Source: Myxococcota bacterium
Lineage (GTDB): Bacteria > Myxococcota_C > UBA6777
Length of the DNA: 37,987 nucleotides
Assembly (NCBI GenBank): GCA_023150835.1
Contig: JAKLKB010000077.1
Location: 1-37,987 of the forward strand
Reading direction: 5' to 3'
Shown here: positions 7,056 to 32,176 of the stretch, one piece after another
Position numbering within the stretch: the stretch's first letter is position 1
How the letters are laid out: the number at the start of each line of letters is the position of its first letter
Notes under the pieces: model-generated
Seen by the model: the letters and a program-made list of their open reading frames with translations, nothing else
Database searches by the model: none
What the model was told of the DNA's origin: nothing
Made by a program: the position numbers and the translations under genes

Positions 7056-7161
7056 GAAAGTCGGAAGCAGCGGGGATGTTGTTTTTTCGTGACGCACGCT
7101 GTATGCACGAGACGCAGACGCTCATCCTCGACCCTCCGGTGTTTCCACCTTAACAAGGCGC

Positions 7162-9834: not shown

Positions 9835-11115
9835 TCATCCCATCCAACCGAGTTCCAATCGGACGAGTTCTCCTTCCGAAGGGGCCACCAACACCAAGCC
9901 TTTTGATGCGTGCATCGGGTCGTAGATCTCAGGCAGGCGATACGCACCTGCCTCCACGATCTCCGTTGAAAGCATCGGAAACATCCGTCCATCGGTCTTT
10001 TTCACTTCGCGCTGTGAAGGGATCCACCACGTATAACTCCACCCTTCGGGAAGATGCGCACCGATCTCCAGCGTCAACCGCCCGAAGGTATAACGTGCGT
10101 TGATCTCGACCAGCGCCCGTTCGATCGCCAGATCCCCCAAAGATCCCGTCATGGCGTCGAAACTAACAGGCCCACAATATCCCTCCGCAGCGACGGCGTG
10201 GATCGTGCGCCACGCATCCGAAAGCGCCGAAGCTGGCGGTTCCCATCCATACACACGCCGATTTCCCCGATGCTGGCCGCTTTGTGCAGTCAACAGCAAA
10301 CAGGTACCAAGAAAACGGCCCGTTCCATCCGCTGCGATCTCGAAATGCAACGAATACTCTCGCGTCTTCTCGATCCAAGGCTCAAAAACCAACGGAGTTC
10401 CCGCCACCAACAAACGCGATGCCCAGATCCGCGCATTCTCTTTGAGTTCATGGGCTTTTCCAAGCACACGCTCGCGCCCACTCACCCCAAACGGATGCTT
10501 GAGTACCCACTCAAACGAACACGCACGAACAGCCGCCTCCATCGCTTCGATGGTTCGGATGATCTGGCTTTGCGGCAAGGCGATCCCCAAACGTTCTGCG
10601 ATCTGTTGCGAAAAGCACTTCCCATTCACGGTCGTCACCACACCGATATCGGGCTTCTTCTCGCGCTCCAAACTCTCCGAAAACATCGACTCTAGCCGCA
10701 AAACACGGGGCGTCCTTCCCCACGCCAAGAACTGATCGCCTTCTTGCGCAACAGACAACGCATCGCGCCCATGCTCGGGGCAAGGCCGATGCAGCCCTTC
10801 AAAAAAGCCGCCTTCGTGCAAGTCCAAGCGGCGCAGCGGTGGGTTTGAAAACCTCTCATCACCCCGCCCATACGGGGTCAAGGGGGCCGCGACCCCTTGC
10901 GGGGTGTGGGGCCGCGCCCCACAAACACAATCCACCGTGTCCTTCTCCAAAACATCCAGCGGAAGCACTCTTGCCTCCGAACATCCCGGCAATAACCGCA
11001 AGGCGCTGCCCCACCGTGTCGCAAAGTCGACAAAAAACTGCGAGGGCTGATAGCCGGTAGAACGAGCCAGTTCGTACTCAAAATCGAAGTTGGGGTAGAT
11101 CCAGCGTATCGTCAT
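9835..11115 (-). CDS. ATP-grasp-like protein carrying an in-frame R1 repeat
   Basis: WVLKHPFGVSGR, VFEPWIEK..EYS, GPVSFDAM and LVEINARYT match the ATP-grasp pattern; ATGA overlap with the upstream DUF455 gene. Confidence 0.78.
   Translation of the reverse strand: MTIRWIYPNFDFEYELARSTGYQPSQFFVDFATRWGSALRLLPGCSEARVLPLDVLEKDTVDCVCGARPHTPQGVAAPLTPYGRGDERFSNPPLRRLDLHEGGFFEGLHRPCPEHGRDALSVAQEGDQFLAWGRTPRVLRLESMFSESLEREKKPDIGVVTTVNGKCFSQQIAERLGIALPQSQIIRTIEAMEAAVRACSFEWVLKHPFGVSGRERVLGKAHELKENARIWASRLLVAGTPLVFEPWIEKTREYSLHFEIAADGTGRFLGTCLLLTAQSGQHRGNRRVYGWEPPASALSDAWRTIHAVAAEGYCGPVSFDAMTGSLGDLAIERALVEINARYTFGRLTLEIGAHLPEGWSYTWWIPSQREVKKTDGRMFPMLSTEIVEAGAYRLPEIYDPMHASKGLVLVAPSEGELVRLELGWMG
10788..10933 (+). 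repeat. Repeat family R1, copy A (inside the ATP-grasp CDS)
   Basis: GATGCAG...AAAAAAGCCG...GTCCAAGCG...GGTTTGAAA...TACGGGGTCAAGGGGGCCGCGACCCCTTGCGGGGTGTGGGGCCGCGCCCCACAAACAC. Confidence 0.88.
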
Positions 11116-12041
11116 GGCTTGGATGACAGCAGATCGAGTTTGATGCGTGGAAGCGGCGGAGCATCGGGCGGCCGCGCAGGTTTTTGAGATGGAGCAGTCG
11201 GCTGTTCCACCAAATCTGGAGCGGGCTGACGATCGATCTCCGCCATCCGCCGAATAAATTCATCATCCAAACCCGCCATCCGACGGCCCTCTTCGTTGAA
11301 CTCGAAACCCCGCGCCCGTGTGGGTGTGCAATATGCCGGCAGATGCGACAGAAAATGCTCGAAAGCGCTGCTGCCTTTGGGGGTATAGTGGCGCAACCAA
11401 TGACCGCCAAACCGCACGTGCATCAACTCGTCCGCAAAGATCCGCTGCATCAAAGAGGCCGCTTCGTGATCGTCAAAGCCCCGAAATATCCGCTCATAAT
11501 ACGGTGCATGATCAAGATTCGCTTGTTCGAGCGTCAGGTGCATCGCACACACCCACGTCAACGGATCTTTGATCTGCGGGGCGATCCGCCAGAAATGATC
11601 ATTCAACGGAAAGTCCCCAAACTCCGCGCCCATCGCACGCACACGCTCGACATACAGGCGCGTATGTTCTTGTTCATCCAAGATGATCCGCACCAGCCCC
11701 ATCCGAAAACCTCGCGGTGCCGTCGGAAACGCCAACAGCGCCCACGCCATCATCTCCAACGCCATCAGTTCATGGTTGCCGAACGCATGCAGCGTGCGCA
11801 CCCGCATCTCTGGGTCGCGCAAAGATTCGATGTGTGGAAGGCGTTTGCGCTGGCGTTTGCTCGCGATCTCCAGATGCGGAGGCCGTGAAGGACATTGCCA
11901 CTCGACCGCATCCCCCGGCTGTTCATCCGATAGCGTCGGGATCCCATGCGGCACGCGCATCAACGCAGCCGCTGGATTTTCCAGCTTGCCCTCCAACGTA
12001 TCCGCATAAAAGATCTGCTCCGCAAATGCCCGAATCTCCAT
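11112..12041 (-). CDS. DUF455-family ferritin-like (di-iron) protein
   Basis: LHAFGNHELMALE, DEQEH, EQANLDH and DELMHV give the paired ExxH ligand pattern. Start is 12041 (MEIRAFAE) or 12065. Confidence 0.85.
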   Translation of the reverse strand: MEIRAFAEQIFYADTLEGKLENPAAALMRVPHGIPTLSDEQPGDAVEWQCPSRPPHLEIASKRQRKRLPHIESLRDPEMRVRTLHAFGNHELMALEMMAWALLAFPTAPRGFRMGLVRIILDEQEHTRLYVERVRAMGAEFGDFPLNDHFWRIAPQIKDPLTWVCAMHLTLEQANLDHAPYYERIFRGFDDHEAASLMQRIFADELMHVRFGGHWLRHYTPKGSSAFEHFLSHLPAYCTPTRARGFEFNEEGRRMAGLDDEFIRRMAEIDRQPAPDLVEQPTAPSQKPARPPDAPPLPRIKLDLLSSKP

Positions 12042-12197
12042 ACCTTTCTCCTTCTCGTTCGACATTGTTCGGTGCGGTTCGAGTCGGATCGCTATAGCCG
12101 ATCCCATCGAAAGAAGATAGAGCGTTGAACATCCCCAAACATGGGGTTTTGTCCACAAGCCACCCCCATCCGCAAAGAGGCTCGTTTTTAAGAGAAG

Positions 12198-12345
12198 CGA
12201 TGCAGTTGACAAAGCCCCCCCGTGTTCGCGGTATTTCAAGCGACAAAGCGGTCGGTGTAAAGCAACGATGATCTCTTCGCCAATACGGGGTCAAGGGGCG
12301 CAAGTCCCTTGTGGGGCGTGGGGTAAAACCCCACAAACACCATCC
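12198..12345 (+). repeat. Repeat family R1, copy B (intergenic)
   Basis: CGATGCAGTTGACAAAG...CCGTGTTCGCG...TCAAGCG...TGATCTCTTCGCCAATACGGGGTCAAGGGGCGCAAGTCCCTTGTGGGGCGTGGGGTAAAACCCCACAAACAC. Confidence 0.88.
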
Positions 12346-12405
12346 CACCGCGTGACACCTACCTACAGCCCACATTTGCTCTGCTTTGTGGCGGTGAGGT
12401 TCGCG

Positions 12406-12434
12406 TTGACAGCGCACTAAAGCTTGTGTACCTT
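12406..12434 (+). promoter_or_regulatory. Putative sigma70 promoter for the acyltransferase-SDR operon
   Basis: TTGACA (12406-12411), 17-nt spacer ending TGTG (extended -10), then TACCTT (12429-12434), about 90 nt upstream of the start codon. Confidence 0.55.
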
Positions 12435-12522
12435 TGCGCCCGAGTTGACCGATGTTTGCATGTTAGAGCGGGCTGCAAACGACAGATGGCGAATGTGTAC
12501 GCGAAACGCAGAGGAGAGGGCG

Positions 12523-13380
12523 GTGTCATTTTTGATTTATGATGACGTGGCAGAGCGTGTCGAACGTCTGGATATCCCATTTAATCTCTATGGTTATGAC
12601 TCTTTTGGAGTCTCGAAGCAGTATCTCAAATACTTCTACAGCATGTTGACCTTTTTTTACCGACATTATCTGACTGTCACAGTCGAAGGCATCGAAAATG
12701 TTCCCGACCAAGGGCGTTGCATGGTGGTGGGCAACCACTCGGGTGGGATCGCTCTTGACGGCGGAATGGTCGTCAATTCGATGCTTCTTGAACGCGAACA
12801 ACCGCGCCTTGTTCACGGAATGGCCGACAAATTCCTCAACAGCATCCCTTTCACTTCGGTTTGGCTCAACCGTGTCGGCCAACTGACCGGCCTTCCCGAA
12901 CATGCTTTGCAACTTCTCGAAGCGGATCGTGTCCTGATGGTCTTCCCCGAAGGCGCACGAGGAACCGCCAAACTTTACAAAGAACAATTCTCTCTGGTTC
13001 GTTTTGGAACAGGCTTTGTGCGCCTCGCGCTCCAAACCCGCTCCCCCATCGTTCCCTTCGCGTTTATTGGCGGAGGTGACGCGATCCCAACCATCCGAAA
13101 CTTCAAGGCCCTTGGGCATCTGCTCGGGGTTCCATACGTGCCGATCACCCCATACATTCTGCCACTTCCGCGCCCTGCCGTTCACTGCCATATCGTCTAT
13201 GACAAGCCAATGATCTTTGAAGGAACAGGCTCCGAAGAGGACGATATTATCGAGGGATACGTTGAACAAGTCAAAAGCAAGATCGCAGACCTGATCGAAC
13301 GAGGCCGCAAAACTCGCGATACCACCGTCGCGATCCGCATGGGCCGAAAGATCGAAACCGACGAAGAGGGGCGCGCATGA
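12523..13380 (+). CDS. Lysophospholipid acyltransferase family protein (PlsC-like)
   Basis: NHSGGIALD (HX6D variant), VFPEG, GFVRLAL, PIVP; GAGGAG RBS before GTG 12523. Confidence 0.9.
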
Positions 13381-14288
13381 AGATCCTCATCACCGGAATG
13401 TCCGGCCAATTGGGCCGAAAAGTCGCGGAATTTATGCACCACCAAGGCCACCAAGTCATCGGCGTGGATCGCCGACCTTGGCCCGATCCGCCACGTGGTG
13501 TCGAGATGTATAACGTGGACATCCGCAAACGCCCCGCTGAAGACGTCTTCCGCACACGACGCCCTGATGCGGTCATCCACATGGCAACCGTCACACACTT
13601 TACAACCGCTGCCGATGAACGCTTTCGGATCAATCTTTGGGGAACCAAGGCCGTCTTCGATTACTGCCATCAATACGGCGTCAAACAAGTCCTGTTTGTT
13701 GGGCGCCACACCTGCTACGGTGCCGCTCCCGACACTCCCCTATACCAAAACGAAGATGAACCACCCGCCGGGATCGCGACGTTCCCCGCGCTTGCAGACC
13801 TCGTCTCGGCGGATCTTTACGCAGCATCCGCCATCTGGCGTTATCCTGATATCAAAACCGCCGTCTTGCGCCTCTGCTACACCCTTGGCCCTTCGATGCG
13901 GGGAACCCTCTCGAACTATCTTCATGGCCCCCGTGTCCCCACCGTCTTGGGCTTTGATCCGCTCTTCCAATTCATGCACGAACAAGACGCTGTCTTTGCC
14001 ATCGGACTTGCACTCCTTAGCCAACTACGCGGCGTCTTCAACGTCGCAGGCCCCGAACCCCTCCCTCTCTCTGTCTTGATCCGTGCAACGGGCCGCACCA
14101 ACGTCCCTCTTCCCGAACCTCTCTTCCCCTTTGCGATGGGCCGCTTTGGCTTCCCCAAACTTCCCCTCGGTGCCGAAGAACACATTAAATATCCCATCGT
14201 CGTCGACGACCGCGTCTTTCGCAAAGCCACGGGCTACGAAGAAGCCTACAGCGCCGACCAAACCACACAAGCCTTCCGCTACTCCTAA
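13377..14288 (+). CDS. NAD-dependent epimerase/dehydratase (extended SDR)
   Basis: [11 protein letters not shown] Rossmann motif, [22 protein letters not shown] overlap with the acyltransferase. Confidence 0.88.
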
Positions 14289-14343
14289 CCGACCGCTCAC
14301 CGCCGCTCAAGCTCTCTGTATTTTGGTTGGGTTCCCATCAGCC

Positions 14344-16119
14344 CTATAAAGGAAACAACGGCCCCCCCTGCAAGATCGTATGCCCTCCGATCGCCGGTGG
14401 TTTCCACCGAAGCAACGCTGTTTTGCCACCCGTCAAAAACACCAAGCGCGGATCTTCCAAAGGGACGCGGAACCGAAAACGCGCTTCTGAAGGCCGACCA
14501 TCCGACAACAACGACACCACTTCGACATCCATCAAATTGATCCGCACTTTTTCCCCTACGCGCATCGGTCGATCCGTTCCGCGAAACAACGCGTCAAACA
14601 CCTGCACAAAGCCACCATCAGGCCGCAATCTCAGCGTGTAGGCGTCTTCGCGCAGCACCCGCACAGGCCGCAACCCCGGCCCCAAGATATGCAACGAGCG
14701 GTAGGTTGGCGGATACAAAAAAGCCCGATACAACTGCACATTCAAATCCAGTAGCGAGGCGCTGCTGTTCAACAAAACGTACACCCGATCGTTGTCATTT
14801 CCTTCCATCGGAAAAGAGCGGGCCTTTTCTTCAATCGCTCTCCCCAACAGCGTTGTCATCTGCGTGCGCAACGGCACAGACAACGGCGAGATCACAAGGT
14901 GCAACGCCGCCAAGATCCCCACACTCGCTCCCCAAAATCTCGATAAATCCGCCCCCTTCGCAGGCTCCCACCTCCTCTGAAACAACAGCGCCAACAACCC
15001 CATCCCACCGATCGCCACAAAAAACAACGAACGATCATCTGGAAACACCGCACAGACCGGCAAGATCGAAAGAAACATCCCCAGCCCCAAACATCGCACC
15101 ACCTTCGACGACCGCAGCGGCCACAACATCCAACACACCCACACAGACACCAACACACCCATCCCCCAAACCAATCCTTGTTGCCCCCGAGACAACAGCA
15201 CGTACGCCGACGAAGGAACCACCGCCCACAACGACATCCACAAGATCGGCAGTCGCTCCACCACCGCAAAAACAAACGCAACAGGCGAAAGCAGCGGATC
15301 CACATACATGGTCGTGCCCACCACCCCATAGCCCAACGCCCGATACACCACGCGCCAACCAATCACCACCACCGCATACGGCCACAAAGCCAATCCGCCA
15401 CGAAACCACCCGCCACGATCCAAAAAACAAGCATACGCAAAGAGATACGCTCCTGTTGCGATCCCTGCCTCCGCGCTCAACACCGACAGCGAAACTCCTA
15501 TCCCTCCGACCACTGCACCCCATCTCCATCCCTCCGCACGCCATCGATCATGCCCCCACAACGCGATCACGCCCCAGAAAACCGCCATCAACCCGTTCCG
15601 ATTGGCGATCCATGTCACCGGCATCGCAAATCCCCCATACGTCGCAAAGCAAAAAGCCGCTGCACCCGCCACCCAGCCCTCCCCCAACCAACGCCGATAC
15701 AACCGCAACAACACCCACACCAACAACGCAAACCACAGCACATTATGCAAGTGCATCCACACCGCACCATCCGGCCACAAACGATAATCGATCGCATGCG
15801 ACAACGCCGCCAACGGACGCCAAAAGGACAAGCGCAACCCAGACGTCGACCACCAAGGCGCATAGCCTTTTTCCATATACGTCCGCAAATGCCCTTCATC
15901 CCGAACGAATGCAAACATCTCCATCACGGGACGTTGCGAAGGTGGCCCCAGATCCGAATGCCCCAAAAAGCACCACCGATGCGAATAATCATCCAAAAAA
16001 TAACCCTGAAACAGGCTCGGCGACATCAAGACGCACACCAACACCACCAAGCCGCCCCCCACAAAACGCCCGCCACACCAACGCAAAAACTTTCCGCGCA
16101 CCCACATCGGCCACCTCAA
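14344..16119 (-). CDS. Polytopic membrane protein, GT-C glycosyltransferase-like
   Basis: LDDY after the first TM segment, FWRPL, HLHNVLW, WIANRN, SAEAG; about 11-12 hydrophobic segments followed by a soluble C-terminal domain. Confidence 0.7.
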   Translation of the reverse strand: MRWPMWVRGKFLRWCGGRFVGGGLVVLVCVLMSPSLFQGYFLDDYSHRWCFLGHSDLGPPSQRPVMEMFAFVRDEGHLRTYMEKGYAPWWSTSGLRLSFWRPLAALSHAIDYRLWPDGAVWMHLHNVLWFALLVWVLLRLYRRWLGEGWVAGAAAFCFATYGGFAMPVTWIANRNGLMAVFWGVIALWGHDRWRAEGWRWGAVVGGIGVSLSVLSAEAGIATGAYLFAYACFLDRGGWFRGGLALWPYAVVVIGWRVVYRALGYGVVGTTMYVDPLLSPVAFVFAVVERLPILWMSLWAVVPSSAYVLLSRGQQGLVWGMGVLVSVWVCWMLWPLRSSKVVRCLGLGMFLSILPVCAVFPDDRSLFFVAIGGMGLLALLFQRRWEPAKGADLSRFWGASVGILAALHLVISPLSVPLRTQMTTLLGRAIEEKARSFPMEGNDNDRVYVLLNSSASLLDLNVQLYRAFLYPPTYRSLHILGPGLRPVRVLREDAYTLRLRPDGGFVQVFDALFRGTDRPMRVGEKVRINLMDVEVVSLLSDGRPSEARFRFRVPLEDPRLVFLTGGKTALLRWKPPAIGGHTILQGGPLFPL

Positions 16120-16164
16120 CCGTCCACTCCCCCATCCTTACGCATCCATCGACGTATCCGCAGA

Positions 16165-17520
16165 TCAATACGGGTTTGCCCCGTGTGTGTCGTTGGGGCG
16201 ACGTGCGAGGATGTACGTAAACGAGCCTTGGCCGCCTGTATTGGCATCACGCAGCGCACGCTGGAACCGCGCATAATCCGCAGGCGGCATGGTTTGACAA
16301 CCGATGCTCGACGGGCTGTTGCTGTTCCCCGCGTGGATCTGGATCGCCGAAGCGCTGTAGCGTCGGTCGGCTTCGCCGCCATCGATCACGCCGTCCCCGT
16401 TGGTGTCGCGGGCGCTATTGCGGAACTGCCCATCATCCACAGGATTATAGCGGTTTCCGCCTTTTCCACCTGTGCGAGTGTTATAATCATACACACCGGG
16501 TCGGATGTGGGCGACATCGCCGCGACCATCGCCGTTGACATCGGGGCTTGCGGAACTGCGGAACTGTCCGGGGTGTGAAGCAGAACGCATCGGATCGCCA
16601 GACACTTCGACCAGTCGGCCATTTTCTGCACGAAATACCGATGTTTCGCCCGAATAGCTGCGTGCAAAATTGTTTCGTGCGGTCTGTGAAGCGCTTGCAG
16701 AAGGAGCGTCTTGATCGATCTGGATCGCGTAGGCGCGGCCATTTTGGGGGGGCCACTGACCATTTGCTCGCAACAAAGCTTCGGCCTGTTGGGTGCGTTG
16801 GGCGCTGGTGTCGCCCCATCCAGAACTCACTCGGCCATTGCCCGTCACAAAGCCGCTTGCATCGGGCGCTGGTGTATTGGGGGCCGGCGCAGGAACGTTG
16901 GGAGCGGGTGTATTGGGGGCGGGTGCAGGGGACTGTCCACCGTTGGCGCGTTGCAGGGCTTCGAAGGTGCGCGGTCCCACGACACCATCGGCATCCAAAC
17001 CGTGTTGGCGTTGAAAGCTACGCACAGCCTCTTGGGTGCGAGGGCCAAAGTCGCCGTCCACGCCAAGGGATGGTCGTGCGCCGGCTTGATTGAGTGCTTG
17101 TTGCAGATCCCGCACAGCGGGGCCTTCCGCACCACGGCGCAAGTTGTTTCCACCTTGGATGCTTTGGGCCAACGCGGAGCTTGGGCGTGTATCGCCGACA
17201 AAGTCAGGAGGCGTCGCACCTGTCGAAGGTTCGGGCATATTGGCGGTGCGTGTGCGAGCGCTTTGAGCAGCCGCAGCCGTCGAGCTTTGCGGGCTTTGCC
17301 CGGACGCGATATCGCGTTGGATGCCTTGGCGGGGGGGTTCTGTGGGTGCGTTTGTGGTGGGGCGCACAGCGTTTGCGAAAGGATCGCGGGCAGGCGTCAC
17401 TTGCGGGGCAGCTTGCGGAGCAGCAGTCGGTGCGTTGCGTTCGATACGTGCGGCACCTGAAGCTGCGCTTGGAGAAGAAACACTGGGTGGATTGGGACGC
17501 GAAGTGTTGTCGGTTTTCAT
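16165..17520 (-). CDS. Peptidoglycan-binding-domain protein with a C-terminal YkuD/L,D-transpeptidase-like motif
   Basis: PG_binding_1 pattern LRRGAEGPAVRDLQQAL...VDGDFGPRTQEAVRSFQRQHGLDADGVVGPRT, a Pro-Ala linker, and IHAGNSNSPSSIGCQT; GGGGAG RBS. Confidence 0.82.
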   Translation of the reverse strand: MKTDNTSRPNPPSVSSPSAASGAARIERNAPTAAPQAAPQVTPARDPFANAVRPTTNAPTEPPRQGIQRDIASGQSPQSSTAAAAQSARTRTANMPEPSTGATPPDFVGDTRPSSALAQSIQGGNNLRRGAEGPAVRDLQQALNQAGARPSLGVDGDFGPRTQEAVRSFQRQHGLDADGVVGPRTFEALQRANGGQSPAPAPNTPAPNVPAPAPNTPAPDASGFVTGNGRVSSGWGDTSAQRTQQAEALLRANGQWPPQNGRAYAIQIDQDAPSASASQTARNNFARSYSGETSVFRAENGRLVEVSGDPMRSASHPGQFRSSASPDVNGDGRGDVAHIRPGVYDYNTRTGGKGGNRYNPVDDGQFRNSARDTNGDGVIDGGEADRRYSASAIQIHAGNSNSPSSIGCQTMPPADYARFQRALRDANTGGQGSFTYILARRPNDTHGANPY

Positions 17521-17744
17521 TAGAAAAAAACTCCCCGAAGTAGAGACGGCACGCCGAAAGGTTCAACCCGCAAAGCGTACAACCATTGCACGCGTTGGCT
17601 CTCCTTTAGCTTCGGAGACACAAAAGCAAAGTTTCTTGTTTCTTTTCAAACCTTTCTCAAGTCTTGAGATTCTTTCACGGAAAAAAACCACGCTGAAACA
17701 TGTTCTATATTTTCGCCCTGCCTGCCCTGTGGTGGTACTGCGCC

Positions 17745-18935
17745 TCAATCTGCGCCCCACATCTTCGGAAGATACGGCGATTCTTTTGGTGATGCAACGG
17801 ATTCTTCGGTCACATCGGGCATCTCAAACGTCCAGATCAACCGCAACACCGACACCACATAATTCAGGAGCATCACTCCCCCGCAGATCAAGGCGATCGT
17901 CAAAAACACCTTCGCCATGTAAGGCACACTCCAGCCAAAATCCGCGTACAACCGATTGAGATCGCCCCCCGCATCCTCTCGACCGTGCATCGCTGTCCCA
18001 AACGGAGCCAAACGCGGATTGTACAAGATACCCCGCCATTGGAACGAAGCCGCCAAGAACGCGTACATGGCCACAGGCAGCGCAAAAAACCGTAGCACCG
18101 ACCAGTACAAACGCTGCGGCAACTCGTAATGAAATGCCACGATCACCAGCGCAGAGAGATAAAATTCCCCGCCGATCCCGCCAAAAAAAAACAGCTTTTC
18201 ATACGTCCGTGTGGACAACACAAAAGTGAAGATCCCTTGCAAACACAACAGTATCCCCGCCACCACGGGCATAAAATACCGACGCTCCCGCACGCCCGCC
18301 CAGATCATCACACCCAACAAAAAAGCCACGCAGATCCCCGCAACCACCGACGGATGCAAACTCACATTCGTCCACAAGATAAACGGCGTGGCGCGGCGAC
18401 TTGTCAGCCAACCGATCACTGCATGTCCCATCTCGTGAAAAAACACTCGCGCAGGCCCAAGCAGCGGCACGACAAACCCCACCATCGCCAACAACAACGC
18501 AACCATCGGAACCACCGTTTGGATCGCGATCTCTAACGCACGCTCTTGCACCGTAAAATATGCAGCCGTCTTCGACCCGACCCACGGGCGTAATCCCGCG
18601 CCCTGCAAGATCAGATCAACCTTCGCGATGATCTGCGCCCCCAAACTGCGCGTCTCCCCCCTCTGCCTGTCTGTAGGCGCATCAATAGACGCAGCGGAAG
18701 CCCCAGCGATCCCTTGCCTTGGGAGAGATGCGTCTTGCATCGACCCATCCTCCCGCTGTTTGTACTTCGCAAAGATCAGCCCACAACGTAAACAATCCAC
18801 AGCCCCCAATACCGACGCCACGCCACATCGCGGGCAATGCGAAAAAGAAGCTCCGCTCTCCTGTTCTACGCGCATACACCTCGTCTCCCTCACTAATTTT
18901 TCAAACAAGCCACTCTGTCGCTTGGGCGTCTGCAA
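17745..18935 (-). CDS. Membrane protein with N-terminal zinc ribbon and M50-like HExxH motif
   Basis: CPRC...CLRC; FFHEMGH within a TM region; a distal GGD; multiple TM segments. Start uncertain (18935 or 18875). Confidence 0.72.
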   Translation of the reverse strand: MQTPKRQSGLFEKLVRETRCMRVEQESGASFSHCPRCGVASVLGAVDCLRCGLIFAKYKQREDGSMQDASLPRQGIAGASAASIDAPTDRQRGETRSLGAQIIAKVDLILQGAGLRPWVGSKTAAYFTVQERALEIAIQTVVPMVALLLAMVGFVVPLLGPARVFFHEMGHAVIGWLTSRRATPFILWTNVSLHPSVVAGICVAFLLGVMIWAGVRERRYFMPVVAGILLCLQGIFTFVLSTRTYEKLFFFGGIGGEFYLSALVIVAFHYELPQRLYWSVLRFFALPVAMYAFLAASFQWRGILYNPRLAPFGTAMHGREDAGGDLNRLYADFGWSVPYMAKVFLTIALICGGVMLLNYVVSVLRLIWTFEMPDVTEESVASPKESPYLPKMWGAD

Positions 18936-18961
18936 ACACGGGCTTTTCCACTAGGCGGGAT

Positions 18962-19735: not shown

Positions 19736-19749
19736 CGTGTTTGCTCCTC

Positions 19750-20436
19750 TTAGGGCTTACGCAGTTGACAAAAAACCCGTGTTCGCACTCGTCCAAGCGA
19801 GAGCGTCGTTGGTTTGGAAAGCAGTGATCTTTTCGGCAAACACGGGGTCAAGGGAGCCGCGCTCCCTTGCGGGGCGTGGGGTGGAGCCCCACAACACAAG
19901 CCCATCTGCGCAAGTCCTCTCCTTTGTGAAGTGATCTCGCTGCTTTCGGCGGCTTGCGAAGCGCTCTCGGCGGCTTGCGGAACAAGGCGGTGCGTCATCA
20001 AAAAATACCGAGAGCGCGGTACAAAGCCGCTGCGCTGATACAACCGCTGTGCCTGCGGATCATCTTGGCGCACTTCGAGGTGCATCGCAAATACGCCCAA
20101 CGCCCGCGCTTCTTCCGTCAACAGCCACAACGCCATCCCTCCGATCCCTTTCCCCCGATAATCCGGCCACAAAAACACTTCATCCACAAAAGCATCTCGT
20201 CCGCCAAACTCCAAACTATAGCCAAAGGCCAGCACCAGATAACCGACCACGCGCTCCCCTTGTGCGATCAACCAGATCGCAGCAGGGCCTTCTTCACGCA
20301 AACACGGTTCCAACGCACAACGGCGGCTCTCTTCTGTGTGCTTGATCCCAAACAGCGTATGGAAGGCTTCCACCATCGGCAACAACACCTCAAGATCCGT
20401 TTTCTTTGCACGCACCAAGTGGATTCTCTCTGTCAC
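19750..20436 (-). CDS. GNAT N-acetyltransferase with R1-derived C-terminal tail
   Basis: YSLEFGGRDAFVDEVFL, YRGKGIG (acetyl-CoA motif A), LEV...AQRLYQRSGF; AAGGAG RBS before GTG. Confidence 0.88.
   Translation of the reverse strand: MTERIHLVRAKKTDLEVLLPMVEAFHTLFGIKHTEESRRCALEPCLREEGPAAIWLIAQGERVVGYLVLAFGYSLEFGGRDAFVDEVFLWPDYRGKGIGGMALWLLTEEARALGVFAMHLEVRQDDPQAQRLYQRSGFVPRSRYFLMTHRLVPQAAESASQAAESSEITSQRRGLAQMGLCCGAPPHAPQGSAAPLTPCLPKRSLLSKPTTLSLGRVRTRVFCQLRKP
19759..19900 (+). repeat. Repeat family R1, copy C (3' end of the GNAT CDS)
   Basis: GCAGTTGACAAAAAACCCGTGTTCGC...GTCCAAGCG...GGTTTGGAAA...TGATCTTTTCGGCAAACACGGGGTCAAGGGAGCCGCGCTCCCTTGCGGGGCGTGGGGTGGAGCCCCACAACAC. Confidence 0.9.
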
Positions 20437-20458
20437 CCGATATCTCCTTAAAACTGTG

Positions 20459-20501
20459 TTTGATGCAGATCAAAAGCATCGTGGCGGATCTTCGATAGCC
20501 T
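20459..20501 (+). promoter_or_regulatory. FNR/Crp-family binding site with candidate -10 for nifJ
   Basis: TTGAT-GCAG-ATCAA (20460-20473) is an exact match to TTGAT-N4-ATCAA. TAGCCT at 20496-20501 would place the box centre at about -41.5. Confidence 0.8.
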
Positions 20502-20543
20502 GTCTTGGTTTGTACGACAAGAAGGCACCAAAAGGAGCGCAAG

Positions 20544-24122: not shown

Positions 24123-24138
24123 TCGAGGAGAACAAGCG

Positions 24139-25152: not shown

Positions 25153-25177
25153 AACTGTTGCTGTTTGGGAACAAACC

Positions 25178-25393
25178 TTGACCGGATCACTCACCAAGGC
25201 ATTGATGTGCGGGCAAAGTGCCGTTCAAAAACTCTACGACCAAAAAGATCCAGAGCTTACTTTTTTTCGTAATACCATTAGCGAATTAGTCGCCCACCCC
25301 TTCGAGGATCGCGCTGAAAAACAACTGTCGGTCCTCATCGACCTCATCCACTCCGCCCAAAAAAGCATTCAGATCTTGCGAGCCAAACATTAG
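25178..25393 (+). pseudogene. Possible short ORF or gene remnant
   Basis: About 70 open codons with protein-like helical content (FFRNTISELVAHPFEDRAEKQLSVLIDLIHSAQKSIQIL), but no clear RBS; the stop overlaps the convergent gene's stop. Confidence 0.25.
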
Positions 25394-26553
25394 CGCGTGG
25401 CTGCCTTCACGTTTTGATGATACACCAACATCTCCGCAGGATCGGTCGTGATCTGGCTGCCTGATTTGTGCGGCCACGGATCGTAGAGAGCATTTTCGCC
25501 GCTGCCTTTGCCATCGTTAAAGAACAAGGCAAAGTGATTGCCACCGCCGCTCCCGATAGTGTCCACCAATTTGATGTTCATCTGATCGAACATCCCCTTC
25601 AAAGGCTGCTCTTTGCCGAGATAAGCAACATCTGTGTCGATGTATTTCTTCATCGCCCCGACACTGATCGTCTCATTTTTGAAGTCGTAGCCTTCTTTTC
25701 TCTCCACTTGGCGTAGCTGTTTGTACACGATGGTTTTGAGATCAGCGAGGTCTTGTTGTGTGACGTTGTTGTTTTTAATTCGCTCTTTGATACCAGACAA
25801 TTTGTCAAATTCTGGAATCTTTGCATCCTTCCAAACGGTCCCTCCGAGGTGTTCGGGCGTAGCGTTTCCTCGATCTTCGATCACGCGCACGAGATCTTGG
25901 AGGCCCTTTTGACCGCCTTGAATCACAGCCCCTGCCACAAGACACGTTGCTCCACAACCATTGGCGTCTGACTCATTGCTGAACTTCGTGTCGTACTGTG
26001 TAAACCCCTTCAATGATTCCATGCGTGCGCTTTTGTCACCAAGCAAGTCGACTTTTTTGCTCATCTGATCGGCCGTCGGATTCAATTCGGAGCCTGTGAC
26101 GCCTTTCTTGTAAAAGCGATCTTCGACCGCACCGCTGGTGCCGGGCCCTGTGCCAAATCCGCCTTCTTGGTTTAGGCGTGCCTGTTGGAGAGAGCCTTGG
26201 ATGCCACCCGTCGGCACAAAAGAAGGTGCCGCAGCAGGGGCCGAAGCACCCGAAGAAAGCGGGAGATGTTGAACATGCGCGGATTTGAGATGTTGTTGGA
26301 GCCCTTGCGAAAGTTGCGTATCCCCTTTGGGCGCGGGGGCTTCTTGTGAAAAAGCTTGTGTTGCTTGACCGAGCAGTTGGGCTGCGGCCTGCGTTCCTTT
26401 GTCAAAAACAGATTGTAGGCGTGCTCCCAAAGAAGAGGAGGGCGCTGACGATGGAGTGGTCGTTTCTTGGGTGGCCTCCGACTTTTGCGGAGCTTGTGTA
26501 GACGAAGATTGCGGAGTGGTCGGGGGTTTGGGACGTTGATCAAAAATACGCAC
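25390..26553 (-). CDS. Hypothetical protein with low-complexity N-terminus and putative papain/C39-like Cys-His-Asp domain
   Basis: AAGGAG RBS and GTG start; motif order TQY...NGCGATCL...GNHFALF...LYDPW. Confidence 0.72.
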   Translation of the reverse strand: MRIFDQRPKPPTTPQSSSTQAPQKSEATQETTTPSSAPSSSLGARLQSVFDKGTQAAAQLLGQATQAFSQEAPAPKGDTQLSQGLQQHLKSAHVQHLPLSSGASAPAAAPSFVPTGGIQGSLQQARLNQEGGFGTGPGTSGAVEDRFYKKGVTGSELNPTADQMSKKVDLLGDKSARMESLKGFTQYDTKFSNESDANGCGATCLVAGAVIQGGQKGLQDLVRVIEDRGNATPEHLGGTVWKDAKIPEFDKLSGIKERIKNNNVTQQDLADLKTIVYKQLRQVERKEGYDFKNETISVGAMKKYIDTDVAYLGKEQPLKGMFDQMNIKLVDTIGSGGGNHFALFFNDGKGSGENALYDPWPHKSGSQITTDPAEMLVYHQNVKAATR

Positions 26554-26739
26554 AGTAGGACTCCTTTACGCACGTTTCGCAGCGTGCGATCACAAAACAC
26601 GCTGCATGGCTTCACATAGCATCGCGCCCTCCACCAAAAAGTTTCGAGATGTGCGCGGTATCACACGTTGTTGCGATCGTCGATGAAAAGGCGTGACGAT
26701 GCGCTCGACTTCGCAGGTCGCTCGCAACCGCATCACCCC

Positions 26740-29325
26740 TCAACCAAGCAACCACTTGACGATCAAGCCAAGCAACAACCCCAACGCAAGCGCCACGCCG
26801 ATCAAGATCAGATTGGGTGTCGTGAAAGCGCTTTGGCCGATAAAGGTGTGGTGGCTGAGTTCAAGATCCGTAAAGTACATCGTTCGTGCAGCGGATTCTT
26901 CTTCGGGCGTAGTCTCCGAGGTCATCTGCGCCGCATAGGCCTTGATCAAAGGATGGTTGTCCTCGCGCATCTTTTGGAGAAGAACCAAGACTTGGGGGCG
27001 TGGAAAGCGCGTCAGTGTATGAAGCGCTTGAAAGCGCATATCATCGCTATAAGCAAAGGTTTTTTTGCGCTTTTCTAACAAGATCCGCTTGATCAACCCG
27101 ATGCTTTTGTCGTCATGAAAAAGACCAAGCATCCACACCGCACTATGGCGCAATCCCGGTGCTTTTTCCGTTTGTTCGAGTTCTTGCGCCAGCCAAACCA
27201 GCCCGTCAATCGATTGCGTACGCTGGAGATACTGAAGAACCAGCTCCTCCAGATCGGGAAGGTGACACAGCGCACGCGCTTGAAGCATCTTGAGCAAAAA
27301 CGCCCGAACCTTCGGGGAGTCATGCGCAATAGCCTGATTGAGCAACCGCTGTCGCTCTGCCCTCTGCAGCGGCTCAGTCAGACGGTGTAGCAGGTAGTCT
27401 TCAAAGATCTGCGGTGCAAAACGACGACTCAATTCGAGGATAACATCCTGTTGCTCATCCAACACCAGTCCCGAACGCATCCGCTCAAACAAGGACTTGA
27501 AAGCACTGTCCCGCTTTTGTGACGGCGCGTTGCGCGCCACTTCGATCAAAAGTTCGACTTGCTGTTGAAAAGCGCTCGGATCGTCTTGGGCTTTTTCGGA
27601 AAGCTCGTCGAGACATTGCGGAAGGGCCTGCTGCGCGAGTTCGGCAAGGACTTCGCGGGCATCTTTGTTTCCGCGTTGCTTGCCATCCTCGATCAGTTGA
27701 TGGACATGCTGCGGCTCAGCCACGTGATCAAGCAGCTTTTGAAGTCCCGCTTTTACGCTAACCGAATCGTCCGCCTCTCCCTCATCGAATCGGTTGAGTA
27801 GCTTTTTGAGCCCCGAATAGACCCCTTGTTCGATCTGTTGATCGATAAATTCTTGCAAAACCCCCACCCCTCCTTCCACAAATTCTTTGGACGGAGCTTG
27901 GCGGATCTGAGCAAGCAAGGCTTCTTGCGAGGCCTCGATGCGTTCGGGTGGCAGCGAAGAAAGCAACGATTGGCGCAACGCGGCCTGAAAAGGTTCGGTG
28001 TGCGAAAGCTGCATCACGTATTGCGCGAGAACATCGGGAGGCGTGTGTGCAAGCTGGCTAGCGATCTGTTCTTGGTAAGCTTCTCGCATCTGTTCATCAG
28101 AAAGACGCTGCGAAGACAGATGAAATTGTTGTACAGCAGACTGGATCTGTTGCTGAACAAGCAGCGGATCAACACCCAAACTTCCCGGGGGCAAGTTCGC
28201 GTTGGGAAGGGAAACACCCGTATGTTGGTGTTGTTGTGCGAGGAAAGCTTGGAGATAACCTTGGGCTTTTCCTGATCGAATAAAGTCTTCAAAACCATCG
28301 CTCGCAGCAAGCGCTGCGGGTTGCCAGTGGCTTGGAAAGCGCACGTCAGATTGTTGCGAAAGAGCGCTCCAATCCACACGCTGGAGCGGTGCAAGATCAT
28401 CTGAAAGCGGTTTGCCTTGGATGGCGGGCAGGTCCACCGAACTCAACGGCTGCGCCTCAGAAGCGGCAAGCAAAGAAGACGAAGGCGAATACACCGAAGA
28501 AAGCGCATCGTTGGACAAAGCGGGAGACTGAAAGCTCGGTAGATCAGCCATGCTCCCACGCATCGGATTTGCGCCTTGGATCGTCGGCCATTGTTCGGAG
28601 GTCGGGTTCGCTTGAAACAGATCAAGAATAAAACGCCCCGAACGAACATATTGCGCAAAGGCCTCGCCTTCTTTTTTGACGTTTTCTTCTTTTTGTTTCC
28701 CTTGATCCGTTCGCTCTTTTTCGTCGAACAGCTCTTGTAATTCTGGGGGAATCTGATCGGGTTGTAAGCCCAACTCTTTTAACAAACTCTCGCGATCCAT
28801 ACTGGCCATGAGTTCGCGCAGAGACATCTTGTCACGCACTTTGTTCGCACTACCACGCCTCAGGATCTGTCGGTTGATCGGGATGCTTGGAAAGCGCAAC
28901 ATCAGCCCATCCACGTCCAGCGCCCCGTCCACATCAGGGTTATGGCGCAGAGTGATCTCAAAAAAATCACCCAGTTCGTTGCGGTGGACCTCGGGCGGGA
29001 TCACCACCGTGTTGATGCCGATGGTTTGGAAGTGCGCGGAAAACTCGCGGCCAAACTGACGCTCTGGTGTAGGTCGGTTGAGAAGTTCGCCGTTGAGTTC
29101 GGTCCCTTCGGCACTAAAAAGCAAGGCCAAGAACGGCATCTTTTGGCAGAGGCGTTGGACTTCTTCGTAAAGGCGGGTATTGATGCGGCGCAGCATCTGG
29201 TGGCCGGGGGGATACATCTTGTGCGCGTTGGCAACCGCACGAAGTTGACGCAAGACATCAAGGACTTCGTCTTGTTTGGGCAGCGGAGCGTCTTGAAGGT
29301 TGAAGATCTTGCGGTCATTGCGCAT
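26740..29325 (-). CDS. Large helical protein with HEAT-like repeats and a C-terminal TM anchor
   Basis: N-terminal MYPPGHQM motif; LRHSAVWMLG, MRFQALHTL and PLIKAYAAQ resemble HEAT/PBS repeats; C-terminal hydrophobic helix; overlaps the kinase stop by 11 nt. Confidence 0.75.
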   Translation of the reverse strand: MRNDRKIFNLQDAPLPKQDEVLDVLRQLRAVANAHKMYPPGHQMLRRINTRLYEEVQRLCQKMPFLALLFSAEGTELNGELLNRPTPERQFGREFSAHFQTIGINTVVIPPEVHRNELGDFFEITLRHNPDVDGALDVDGLMLRFPSIPINRQILRRGSANKVRDKMSLRELMASMDRESLLKELGLQPDQIPPELQELFDEKERTDQGKQKEENVKKEGEAFAQYVRSGRFILDLFQANPTSEQWPTIQGANPMRGSMADLPSFQSPALSNDALSSVYSPSSSLLAASEAQPLSSVDLPAIQGKPLSDDLAPLQRVDWSALSQQSDVRFPSHWQPAALAASDGFEDFIRSGKAQGYLQAFLAQQHQHTGVSLPNANLPPGSLGVDPLLVQQQIQSAVQQFHLSSQRLSDEQMREAYQEQIASQLAHTPPDVLAQYVMQLSHTEPFQAALRQSLLSSLPPERIEASQEALLAQIRQAPSKEFVEGGVGVLQEFIDQQIEQGVYSGLKKLLNRFDEGEADDSVSVKAGLQKLLDHVAEPQHVHQLIEDGKQRGNKDAREVLAELAQQALPQCLDELSEKAQDDPSAFQQQVELLIEVARNAPSQKRDSAFKSLFERMRSGLVLDEQQDVILELSRRFAPQIFEDYLLHRLTEPLQRAERQRLLNQAIAHDSPKVRAFLLKMLQARALCHLPDLEELVLQYLQRTQSIDGLVWLAQELEQTEKAPGLRHSAVWMLGLFHDDKSIGLIKRILLEKRKKTFAYSDDMRFQALHTLTRFPRPQVLVLLQKMREDNHPLIKAYAAQMTSETTPEEESAARTMYFTDLELSHHTFIGQSAFTTPNLILIGVALALGLLLGLIVKWLLG

Positions 29326-32176
29326 GGTGGGTCTCGCGTATCAAAGCAAGAGAAGAGAAAGCCAAAGAACGCTGAGAGCGAAGGGGGGAAAGAGGCCGAT
29401 ACATGGGGCGTACCGAAGACGCACAACCCAAACAAGCAGCGCGCTCTTGGGAGGCAAAAACAGAACGAACAGAGGAGCAATGCCGTTGGCCAAAAAAACC
29501 CCGTGTTCGCGGACGTTCAAGCAAGAGTGTCGTTCGTGTGAAAAACGCTGATCTGTTCGCCCAAGACGGGGTCAAGGGGGCCGCGCTCCCTTGCAGAGTC
29601 TGGTACCTCGCCCCACAAAACCATTCAACGGCGTCGCTCCTACGAATAGCGCTATCTTGGAAGACAGAAGCAGAAAGAACAACGCGATCTTGAGACGCAA
29701 AAACACGGTGGGCCGGAGCTTTGCTGTCGATATTTGCGGGAGGACTGACACTGCGTTGCAGAAGATAAAAGCCGATGGCTGCGAGCGCCGTCACGGCAAC
29801 AAGCAGCAGCCAAAACAGCGCACGCGAGCGAGGTCGCTGATTTTTGGAAAAATCGGGCTGTTTGCGTTGATAAGCGCCTCGCTGCGCAGGAGGTTTGGAA
29901 GCAAGGCCGGGGTGACGAATTTCGAGTTCCTCAAGCGACAAGATCTGGTCTTTTGTGTCTTGCGGTGTGGTCGATGTAGCCGGTGTGGTCGAGCGTTCGG
30001 TATTTTTTTTCACAACGGGAAGATCTGAGTGACTCCCCGAAGGTCGAGACCCCGCCACCGTCAAGATCTGCATCCGCCCGATCGTCTGGCTGCCGGGTGC
30101 GGTGCCGTTCGCTGTTGGCAACGCAGGTTGAGAGAGCGCTTCGTCTTCAAAGCTCGACCCTTCGGACTCTCCCATGAGCTCGCCCTCTTTGTGGGAATAG
30201 TCTTCGAGCAAAAGTTCCATCATTAATTCAGACAGATTCAATCGGGGTTCTTCGCATCTTCGCAGGTGCTTTGCGAGACGCCCGAGCATCTCTTCGATCG
30301 GAAGCGGATCGTTGGGCAGTTCGGGTTGCCCAAGCCCTTTGAGCAGCTTGTTGGCTTCTTGACGGAGTTCTTCAGGTTCAAGGATCGGCTTGAGAGAACG
30401 TGCGGTGAGTTCTTCCGCTTTGAAGGTTTCGCCGCTGTCCTTCTCGAAGTGTTGGACTCCAACAAGGATCTCTCGAAGTTCTCGGCTGACGTCAAGCACC
30501 GAATCAGGCCGTTTTTCCCGCGATTTGGAGAGGCAACGCTCCACCAACTTTTGCAGCCGAGGCGGAAAGATCATATCGGGCCGGATCTGCGTCAGGGGCG
30601 GAGGCTGCGTGTAGAGGTGATCCATCAGGATCTTGACCATGTTTTCGCCAAAAAACGGAGGAATCCCCACGAGACATTCGTACAAAATGATACCGACGCT
30701 GTAGACGTCGGAGCGATGGTCGATATCGGTCTGTCCTGCGGCTTGTTCGGGGGACATATAACTGGGAGTACCGAGAAACATCCCCGTGACGGTTAGCTGT
30801 TGGGCATCTTCGCTGTTGAGTTTGGCGATCCCAAAGTCGATCAAACAAAGGTCTTCGAGCGGTCCCTTGGGGCTTTCGCGCAAAAAGATGTTGCCCGGCT
30901 TGAGGTCGCGGTGAACGATCCCGCGCTGGTGCGTATAAGCAAGCGCATCACAAAGTTGATCAAAAAAGCATAGAATCTCAGGAGGATTGAGTTTTTTTCG
31001 CCCTGTTTCAACGCGAAACTCACGAAAGTCCTGACCGCGCAACAGCTCCATTGCAAGAAAACAACCCAGTTCGTCTTCTTGGCCCGAAGAGACCGTCCGA
31101 ACGATGTGCGGATGTTCGAGAGAAAGCTGTACCCGCGACTCTCGCTTAAAACGATCCAACACACTTTGATCGGTGCTGAGTTGCATCGGCAAGATCTTGA
31201 CCGCCACTTCTTCGTTGGTTCTTTGATCGGTGGCTTGGTACACCGCCCCCATCCCACCTTGCCCCAATTTCTTGTGCAGCGCAAAACGACTCCCGATGAT
31301 CTTGCCGATCAATGGGTCTTTTTTGGTCTCTTTGGTCGGAAGAGAAGTGCGGATCTGTGCGTTGCTTTTCGGCGCTTCGGCAAGCGAAGAGGCGATCCCT
31401 GTGGATTCAAAAACATACGCATCGTCTTGGTTGTCAAAGTCCTCGGCGCTTTTGGCAGGAGGTTGATGGATACGAAGGCTCGGCTGATCGGCTGTTTTTT
31501 TGGGAGAGGCAGTCAAACCCTTTGAGACGGCGTTGGGTTGTGGTGTTGCATCGTTGGATATCCCCGAAGGAAGGGACATTAAGCCTTTGGGGATCAGGCT
31601 TGGCTGTGGGGTCACGTCTTTGTGGGCTGTGGTGGGCGGCGAGGTCAGACCTTTTGGCAGAGGGGCGGGCTGCGCGGTGTTGTCCTTGGAAACCCCGATC
31701 GGAAGGGACGTTAAGCCTTTGGGGATCGCGGTGGGATGGGGAGTCGCATCTTTGTTGACCCCTGCGGGTGGAGAAGAAAGCCCCTTTGGGAGTGTTGTGG
31801 GTTGTGCTGTGTTGTCTTTCAACAGATGCGCAGGAAGGGAAGTCAGGCCCTTTGCAACGGGGCTTTGGGGGGGAGCAGCGTCTTTCGCCACCCCCGCAGG
31901 CGGCGTTGTTTCTTCCACAAAGTCGTCGATGCCCAACGGGGCGGTTTTTTCCACAAATTGTATCGACTCAGGTTTTGTCGTTTCTTCTTGAAGCTGGGGG
32001 GGAAGGTGTGTCTTGGATGCCTGTTTCGCCTCGGGAGTGTGGGGAGAAGCATGCGAAACAGACGGTGCGCCGTCCGACGCAAGAGAAGACGCGTAGGGGG
32101 AAGGTTCGAAGTCGTCTTGGACGCCATCTCTCTCCGCTTCGGGAGGAGGTTGCATCATCTTCGGTGGATTCGGCAT
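29315..32176 (-). CDS. Hanks-type Ser/Thr protein kinase, membrane-anchored
   Basis: LGQGGMGAVY, VAVKIL, HRDLKPGN, IDFGIAK, GTPSYMSPEQ, SDVYSVG; TM segment LFWLLLVAVTALAAIGFYLL. Confidence 0.93.
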   Translation of the reverse strand: MPNPPKMMQPPPEAERDGVQDDFEPSPYASSLASDGAPSVSHASPHTPEAKQASKTHLPPQLQEETTKPESIQFVEKTAPLGIDDFVEETTPPAGVAKDAAPPQSPVAKGLTSLPAHLLKDNTAQPTTLPKGLSSPPAGVNKDATPHPTAIPKGLTSLPIGVSKDNTAQPAPLPKGLTSPPTTAHKDVTPQPSLIPKGLMSLPSGISNDATPQPNAVSKGLTASPKKTADQPSLRIHQPPAKSAEDFDNQDDAYVFESTGIASSLAEAPKSNAQIRTSLPTKETKKDPLIGKIIGSRFALHKKLGQGGMGAVYQATDQRTNEEVAVKILPMQLSTDQSVLDRFKRESRVQLSLEHPHIVRTVSSGQEDELGCFLAMELLRGQDFREFRVETGRKKLNPPEILCFFDQLCDALAYTHQRGIVHRDLKPGNIFLRESPKGPLEDLCLIDFGIAKLNSEDAQQLTVTGMFLGTPSYMSPEQAAGQTDIDHRSDVYSVGIILYECLVGIPPFFGENMVKILMDHLYTQPPPLTQIRPDMIFPPRLQKLVERCLSKSREKRPDSVLDVSRELREILVGVQHFEKDSGETFKAEELTARSLKPILEPEELRQEANKLLKGLGQPELPNDPLPIEEMLGRLAKHLRRCEEPRLNLSELMMELLLEDYSHKEGELMGESEGSSFEDEALSQPALPTANGTAPGSQTIGRMQILTVAGSRPSGSHSDLPVVKKNTERSTTPATSTTPQDTKDQILSLEELEIRHPGLASKPPAQRGAYQRKQPDFSKNQRPRSRALFWLLLVAVTALAAIGFYLLQRSVSPPANIDSKAPAHRVFASQDRVVLSASVFQDSAIRRSDAVEWFCGARYQTLQGSAAPLTPSWANRSAFFTRTTLLLERPRTRGFFGQRHCSSVRSVFASQERAACLGCASSVRPMYRPLSPLRSQRSLAFSSLALIRETHHAQ
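29478..29625 (+). repeat. Repeat family R1, copy D (inside the kinase C-terminal coding region)
   Basis: TGCCGTTGGCCAAAAAAACCCCGTGTTCGCG...TTCAAGC...TGATCTGTTCGCCCAAGACGGGGTCAAGGGGGCCGCGCTCCCTTGCAGAGTCTGGTACCTCGCCCCACAAAAC. Confidence 0.88.
31505..31905 (-). repeat. Six 66-bp (22-aa) coding tandem repeats in the kinase N-terminus
   Basis: KGL(T/S/M)S(L/P)PxxxxKDxTxQPxxx(P/S), with KGL recurring six times at 22-aa spacing. Confidence 0.9.

Follow-up and report, generated by a model that had tools for sequence, protein, structure and literature searches.

A high-copy miniature element with IS701-type ends, read in frame within a few proteins of an uncultured Myxococcota lineage

The 37,987-nucleotide stretch of DNA examined here (contig JAKLKB010000077.1 of assembly GCA_023150835.1, from a Myxococcota bacterium, called the window throughout) raises the question of why one dispersed palindromic repeat, which we call R1, should be read in the same frame inside three unrelated proteins, namely an ATP-grasp-like protein, a GNAT acetyltransferase and a Ser/Thr protein kinase. 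That the three open reading frames (ORFs) run through R1 in one frame without a stop, as an earlier note on this DNA had reported, is correct, and the four near-complete copies of the window are indeed found where that note had placed them, in the sequence itself, among the repeat families of the window and by a genome-wide profile. The note went on to propose an element resembling the Rickettsia palindromic elements (RPEs), which would favor genes and add a module of about 45 residues to the proteins that it enters. Our results lead to a different answer. R1 is a selfish, high-copy MITE (miniature inverted-repeat transposable element) of about 170 bp, and the common frame is the outcome of a filter and not of a preference.

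The abundance of R1 was estimated in its own genome (G000; 7.56 Mb in 239 contigs, 55.2% GC, 93% complete). A profile built from the four near-complete window copies, which show 76% mean column identity in their alignment and form repeat families D1, D3 and D4 in the window, gave 756 nhmmer matches in G000, divided between the strands as 387 and 369, and a second profile with the ends of the element included gave 795, of which 645 cover at least 120 nt. In total, R1 accounts for 106 kb, or 1.4% of the G000 DNA, which bears out the suspicion of a selfish element with a high genomic copy number. Because 67 of the 795 matches lie within 300 nt of a contig end, the copy count is a lower bound. A density of one match per 9.5 kb would place 4.0 matches in a window of this size, so that the six R1 loci first reported in 38 kb are near the genome average and the window can be regarded as typical. 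The modal length is 168–171 bp, without a transposase gene, and copies are dispersed on both strands.

Aligning the flanks of R1 copies in register revealed 17-bp terminal inverted repeats (TIRs), TAGGAGTTACGCAGTTG. One end reads TAGGA(G/C)TTACGCAGTTG, the opposite end has the reverse complement, and in the best copies the two lie 168–171 bp apart. When one mismatch is tolerated, the 17-mer has 159 matches in G000, 160 in the same-genus genome G001, and 4, 1 and 0 in G002, G003 and G004, respectively; a reversed control pattern has 0 occurrences in each of these genomes. Both ends are recognizable (four mismatches or fewer each) in 53 of the 635 near-full copies examined, and 13 of these 53 are bounded by exact direct repeats flush with the ends, 5 bp long in eight copies and 6 bp long in five. 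Three window copies are complete, all on the plus strand: one at 12193–12360, between a DUF455 gene and a divergent acyltransferase gene, one at 19751–19918 (positions 1–169 of the model, TIR with one mismatch), and one of 169 bp at 29473–29641, in the low-complexity C-terminal tail of the kinase. The limits first given for these copies were too narrow, the TIRs having been missed. The first of the three is most likely non-coding, because the DUF455 ORF of G001 starts at MEIRAF, which corresponds to window position 12041. The fourth copy, at 10800–10934 on the plus strand of the ATP-grasp-like gene, consists of the core (model 20–155) with decayed ends. Two fragments reported previously were recovered on the minus strand, one by the profile at 7164–7249 (model 58–143; previously 7162–7229) and the other by eye only, as a short left-end piece with the T-run and the inner inverted repeat at about 6819–6852 (previously 6821–6850), where it abuts the stop of the gene at 4841–6823. 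A third minus-strand fragment, at 18891–18947 (model 22–78), had been overlooked.

Between the terminal repeats lies an interior of about 135 bp with an A-run, a long stem and two hairpins, the A/T run and the stems being the best conserved parts of the element; the predicted folding energies of the two strands are −55.7 and −50.5 kcal/mol. Rfam gave no match to R1, either at gathering thresholds on the window or at E values up to 1 on two copy-bearing loci, and our literature search found no paper describing this family, none on MITEs in Myxococcota among the titles listed, which deal with arthropod mites or unrelated subjects, and none listed for it under IS701 MITEs; the family, which the earlier note had called possibly undescribed, is apparently so. 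A sister MITE of 116 bp in G000 (for example at C47:1121-1236 and C136:63930-64045) shares these ends, contains a perfect palindrome of 20 bp and shows very clean target duplications of 5–6 bp; 29 end pairs are spaced 112 nt apart.

The identity of the element that could have moved R1 was sought through these ends. In G000, 93% complete, there is no match to NF049921, the model for ISAba11-type IS701 transposases, or to DDE_5. Five DDE_Tnp_1 matches in the same genome were ruled out as parents, as no R1 ends flank them, and so were pairs of terminal repeats 400–5000 bp apart, which enclose ordinary genes or other repeats and no transposase. G001, on the other hand, carries a 220-bp element between the same repeats, with one mismatch in each, that retains the first 45 codons of an NF049921-type transposase; the 45-residue peptide is 73–82% identical to the N-termini of transposases of 330–331 aa that score 331–344 bits on NF049921 (cut-off 250). 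A scan of one genome per species led to a full insertion sequence (IS) of about 1066 bp in another metagenome-assembled genome (MAG; locus L038), with the exact 17-mer at both ends, inverted at the far one. There, the upstream 17-mer lies 67 nt before the transposase start codon and the transposase stop codon is inside the terminal repeat. On NF049921 the L038 transposase scores 348.9 bits and that of L039 345.7 bits, against the same cut-off of 250. The same repeat is found upstream of the transposase gene at L039, L041 and L042, which come from MAGs of several phyla; L042 has one mismatch in it, the other three loci, L038 included, none. Transposase P0003, scanned against metagenome contigs, had no relative among them.

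On the sequence evidence, then, R1 is a MITE of an insertion sequence of the IS701 family, ISAba11 group. It is like that group in that its 17-bp repeat is identical to that of the full-length L038 IS, in the 5-bp target duplications, which are typical of the ISAba11 group, and in the existence of a deletion derivative that keeps the transposase N-terminus. Furthermore, the long open frame of R1 ends at the same TAA within the terminal repeat (…ATA*) as does the parent transposase gene (L038:1470-1499), which means that the strand read in the window proteins is the transposase sense strand. It is unlike the group in its 135-bp interior, which bears no likeness to the interior of the L038 IS, in a copy number far above that of an IS, and in that no autonomous copy was found in G000. 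ISAba11 itself presumably has such ends. TIRs, target duplications, small size, lack of genes, many copies, empty sites in relatives (see below) and an autonomous element with the same ends, all of which characterize MITEs, are found for R1.

The shared frame of the three window proteins has a plain explanation. The R1 consensus is open almost end to end in one of the six frames only, which is the one used in these proteins, and this single long open frame accounts for the agreement among the three window copies. Among the 496 copies (of 645) that carry the anchor motif, the window frame is open in 281 and the other frames in 0 to 216. ORFs of 100 aa or more were scored for coding potential with a home-made 3-periodic fifth-order Markov model, whose sensitivity is 82% at 1% false positives; codon-usage log-odds, with 39% sensitivity at 0.5% false positives on 70-codon windows, were dropped as a measure. 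In this analysis 44 coding-like ORFs read into the 454 R1 copies examined, in frames minus 10/6/13 and plus 5/3/7, and 27 of the 44 stop within six codons of the element edge, so that in those cases R1 merely supplies the stop. Crude gene calls (3996 ORFs, 79% of G000) place 515 of the 645 copies between genes (overlap below 15 nt), 84 over the 5' end of a longest-ORF call, 4 over the 3' end of a gene call and 42 inside one. Within the last group, 37 copies lie in the first 350 nt. Most of these 37, which nonetheless include the ATP-grasp insertion, are probably start-codon artefacts; five of the 645 are left deep inside a call. Coding copies of R1 are rare, are not tied to one frame, and are located in linkers or tails. 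The preference for genes that had been envisaged does not agree with these counts, nor does a frame and orientation bias of the coding copies, given that ORFs enter R1 in all six frames and that a further host protein, described below, contains copies in both orientations.

The gene of the ATP-grasp-like protein (426 aa; 9835–11115, minus strand), whose family assignment is weak (sub-threshold LdmS and RimK matches, and PDB 7r8p at an E value of 2.7e-5), contains R1 in codons 58–123, an insert of 66 codons at 10747–10944 on the minus strand. Its orthologues in G002, G003 and G004 are single ORFs that align to residues 1–57 and 124–426 and have a short variable linker in place of residues 58–123 of G000 and G001, and are thus empty sites. 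To judge from these alignments, the copy is a genuine internal in-frame insertion that predates the split of G000 and G001. Contigs of two other studies bridge the junctions (X4 over 9835–10899; X4 and X7 over 10901–12245), hence the insertion is not an assembly artefact. Metatranscriptome contigs X17 and X18 comprise parts of the DUF455 gene and otherwise only the repeat hairpins, with the body of the ATP-grasp gene uncovered. Between G000 and G001, dN/dS is 0.96 in the 66 insert codons, 0.16 in the 57 N-terminal codons and 0.10 in the other 303, which shows a host gene under selection on both sides of an insert that drifts neutrally. In the AlphaFold model of the protein (mean pLDDT 75.6, from a 5-sequence alignment), residues 58–126 stay below a pLDDT of 50 and the remainder is mostly at 80–95, and the insert is without secondary structure up to residue 118; it is a tolerated and apparently functionless loop, disordered in the model. 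As a protein module of about 45 residues, therefore, R1 does not qualify, the inserted peptide being neither conserved nor, in the model, ordered.

Two further observations concern the same gene. In G001 (L002), and only there, an additional 27-nt in-frame tandem duplication, encoding nine residues (SAVQEGDRC / SAVQEGDQC), lies at the downstream border of the insert. The DUF455 stop overlaps the ATP-grasp-like start (ATGA, 11112–11115), the pair is conserved in G001, and the two genes probably form one operon.

The kinase (953 aa; 29315–32176, minus strand) provides a second empty site, its G001 orthologue being 87% identical and without R1. The stop of the kinase and the start of the gene that follows, at 29325, overlap, and this overlap is present in both genomes, as is the ending LAFSSLAL(I/T)RETHHAQ followed by the stop. 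The copy is flanked on both sides by (A/G)TTCG, a 5-bp duplication, and 169 bp plus 5 bp make 174 bp, or 58 codons, which is why the frame is kept. The kinase copy is an internal in-frame insertion after which the native C-terminus and stop are regained; the suggestion that it arose by read-through after stop loss does not fit the gene. The tail contains short tandem repeats of about 33 nt whose number and sequence differ between G000 and G001 (window 29650-29760, L019:1790-1900), and R1 landed inside one such unit.

In the GNAT acetyltransferase (19750–20436, minus strand), in contrast to the other two window hosts, in-frame insertion did not stand. The GNAT domain reaches to about residue 141, and in G002 the orthologue stops six residues past RYFLLT; the G000 ORF continues for 22 residues beyond the G002 end and then through 55 R1 codons to a TAA (19750–19752) at the element edge, and this copy is by comparison with G002 a C-terminal extension. 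The G001 contig ends inside the GNAT gene, which leaves the more distant G002 as the comparison for this copy. Directly downstream of the G002 orthologue is an ORF of 392 residues (L013:291-1469), which by eye resembles a TnpB (OrfB) of the IS200/IS605 type.

A fourth host was found outside the window, a giant ORF of 2593 residues resembling polyketide synthases (PKSs) or polyunsaturated fatty acid (PUFA) synthases (G000 C39:6550-14328; L043), which contains two R1 copies, in opposite orientations and in two frames other than that of the window. The G001 orthologue, 92% identical, has an empty site in place of one copy, which is private to G000 and lies within an 80-residue extra segment between conserved domains. 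The other is common to both genomes, and 16 of its 39 aligned residues differ (manual count), with a 3-residue indel in addition, in a host that is 92% identical. The ATP-grasp copy and the shared PKS copy are hence two in-frame internal copies kept open in both G000 and G001. True in-frame insertions of R1, as far as alignment with orthologues indicates, are those in the ATP-grasp-like protein, in the kinase tail and in the PKS-like giant protein.

Six genomes of the phylum-level group (G000–G005) were sampled for the distribution of the element. R1 is present in G000 and G001, with 737 and 657 first-look candidates, respectively; searches of G002, of the same genus and 64% complete, gave none, and neither did those of G003–G005. 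Median identity to the consensus is 79% over the core, no copy reaches 95%, and the median identity to the nearest neighbor is 84.5%; the copies are old and decaying.

Taken together, these data make it very probable, in our opinion, that R1 is a non-autonomous IS701-type MITE whose in-gene copies have been filtered by selection and whose encoded peptide is a passenger. A DDE transposase of the IS701 family (ISAba11 group, NF049921) would have moved R1 in trans by way of its 17-bp TIRs, each insertion duplicating 5 bp of the target and sometimes 6, and R1 would have multiplied to at least 650–800 copies in the lineage of G000 and its closest relative G001, both before and after these separated. 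Insertions in genes would almost all have been removed by selection, which would produce the intergenic bias, and the survivors would be those that offered a stop-free frame, added a whole number of codons and fell in a variable linker or tail, where the R1-encoded peptide would be tolerated as a neutrally drifting, disordered passenger.

Several points weigh against this account. The searches of G000 gave no NF049921 or DDE_5 transposase, and the case for mobilization in this host thus depends on the identity of the ends. Of 643 aligned copies, 27 alone retain 14 or more of the 17 positions at either end alike, and the inner hairpins are better kept; the better-kept core could reflect constraint on the core, or just subfamilies and poor alignment of the ends. 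Some of the pairs in the hairpins are found in two or three Watson-Crick variants. The gene calls are crude and the coding counts consequently approximate, the kinase copy was missed by the filter of the frame tally, and 191 of the 645 copies were left out of that tally for want of an exact anchor motif or for lying near a contig end. Lastly, intergenic copies are biased in orientation. Between co-directional genes the minus strand of R1 is the sense strand in 146 of 240 cases, vs 94 in the opposite arrangement (binomial p of about 0.001), and the median distance of these minus-sense copies is 40 nt from the upstream stop and 178 nt from the start that follows, vs 105 and 108 nt in the other orientation; density per kb is 0.47 between convergent, 0.34 between co-directional and 0.28 between divergent genes. 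Such a bias of orientation and position is not predicted by a purely neutral parasite.

It is possible, albeit rather unlikely, that R1, a MITE by origin, also came to serve genes at their 3' ends as an RNA element whose action depends on orientation, either a terminator or a transcript stabilizer. This would add to a MITE origin and not replace it, as the two are compatible. In minus-strand RNA a pair of GC hairpins and a long closing stem would precede 5–8 U in a row, all four near-complete window copies are in that orientation, and the minus-sense excess, the short median distance to the upstream stop, the highest density between convergent genes, the good conservation of the A/T run and stems, and the presence of some stem pairs in several Watson-Crick types would all fit such a role. 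However, a simple terminator scan flagged none of the copies at 10800–10934, 12193–12360 and 19751–19918 (that at 29473–29641 was outside the scan), and Rfam yielded nothing even at the permissive threshold mentioned above. Folding does not single out the minus strand either, as the predicted energies of both strands are similar and G-T pairs outnumber A-C pairs on the plus strand (3376 vs 1654), so that the plus strand, if either, would fold better. The bias could moreover stem from selection against polar effects or from target choice, and the in-frame copies inside genes are also in the supposed terminator orientation. A simple promoter scan, for its part, flagged nothing in the window copies that it covered. 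Correia elements of Neisseria and the SPRITE repeats of pneumococcus are MITE-type repeats with terminator-like activity, and R1 resembles them as a high-copy intergenic MITE with hairpins whose bias hints at polar effects on transcription; it differs from them in that the terminator scan does not flag the copies covered. A bolder proposal, that the hairpin core is kept by selection, as the Watson-Crick variants and the better-kept core might suggest, and that R1 is a genome-wide 3'-end element placed about 40 nt past stops whose single open frame also lets it persist through a speciation event as disordered linkers in enzymes, seems improbable to us, but if it were true the ends of transcripts and the linkers of proteins would, in this uncultured lineage, both be shaped by a single family of MITEs.

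That R1 is instead an RPE-like element, one that prefers in-frame sites in proteins and adds a module of some 45–60 residues, we regard as very unlikely. There are, it is true, four or more copies in frame inside proteins and one more that extends a C-terminus, two copies are open in both G000 and G001, and the consensus has one long open frame. Nevertheless, only 5 of 645 copies are deep in gene calls though about 79% of the DNA is called coding, the entering ORFs show no frame preference and the PKS copies are in two other frames, the ATP-grasp insert evolves at a dN/dS of 0.96 and is modeled as disordered coil, the shared PKS insert has diverged well beyond its host, and R1 bears DDE-type inverted-repeat ends and target duplications. 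Both R1 and the RPEs are small repeats of about 150 bp that sit in frame in unrelated proteins without destroying them. According to a review (PMC10969869), 44 RPE copies are integrated in R. conorii and nearly half of RPEs are in genomic ORFs, so that about half of RPEs compare with roughly 1% of R1 copies deep in genes. Inverted-repeat ends, target duplications, an identified DDE parent and a neutral peptide further set R1 apart from RPEs, a distinction drawn from these features.

Fusion of MITEs to genes in frame is, in fact, known already. The same review calls in-frame fusions of MITEs and ORFs "not unusual" and names RPEs as the extreme case (PMC10969869). A parallel to the way in which R1 ends ORFs is found in QMITE1 and QMITE2 of Coxiella burnetii, which prolong the 3' ends of genes or overlap them by a small number of bases and account for some 0.9% of the genome in 45–78 copies (PMC5896051). 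As in those elements, most ORFs that enter R1 (27 of 44) end within six codons of its edge, and the share of the genome, at 1.4%, is of the same kind; unlike those elements, R1 has at least 650 copies vs 45–78 and includes internal in-frame insertions, and sequences and parents are unrelated.

The remaining idea, that R1 is a palindrome of the REP/REPIN type moved by an HUH transposase (RAYT or IS200/IS605), is extremely improbable, as its GC-rich hairpins, its high copy number and two marginal Y1_Tnp matches in G000 (23–24 bits) face 17-bp TIRs with 5-bp target duplications, which HUH elements do not make, and the same ends around IS701-family transposase genes. The two Y1_Tnp matches are, moreover, incomplete, with 1.2 and 5.8 kb between them and the R1 copy closest to each, and the transposase linked to R1 is a DDE enzyme of the IS701 family, not the HUH enzyme for which the earlier note proposed to search.

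R1 is not the only repeat in this DNA. The intergenic stretch at 6824–7228 is a nest of at least three repeat families. One of them is a longer family, of about 250 bp or more, that begins with an R1-type terminal repeat and hairpin and continues with unrelated conserved sequence (window 6960-7180; G000 C75:24443, C156:1390, C138:116640 and C227:3115). A separate dispersed repeat, unrelated to R1 (families D9 and I1), has the ends ACGAAATCCGCCC...GGGCGGATCTCGTAT and is found at window 4700-4890 and 6853-6961 and at L029:1215-1460. At L029:1463-1883 (G000 C238), an R1 copy has as its immediate neighbor a small decayed IS, one of the five DDE_Tnp_1 matches, in which the DDE_Tnp_1 frame is broken and which has inverted repeats of its own, GAGGGTGTTTGCGAAAAAGTG. 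Tandem repeats of 24/48 nt (D2) occupy window 37800-37985, in an ORF that runs off the window end.

For those who work with such genomes, R1 is of practical relevance. It breaks assemblies, as the matches near contig ends indicate, and it inflates ORF calls, as do the 84 copies over the 5' ends of longest-ORF calls, and we would advise annotators to mask it. More broadly, R1 is a very abundant MITE family, of at least 650–800 copies, in a lineage without cultured members that metagenome bins alone represent, and the type of IS that would move it can be named. The ATP-grasp-like, kinase and PKS-like cases provide clean natural pairs of occupied and empty orthologous sites for a mobile element in working genes, and its host sites show which positions in proteins tolerate about 60 extra disordered residues.

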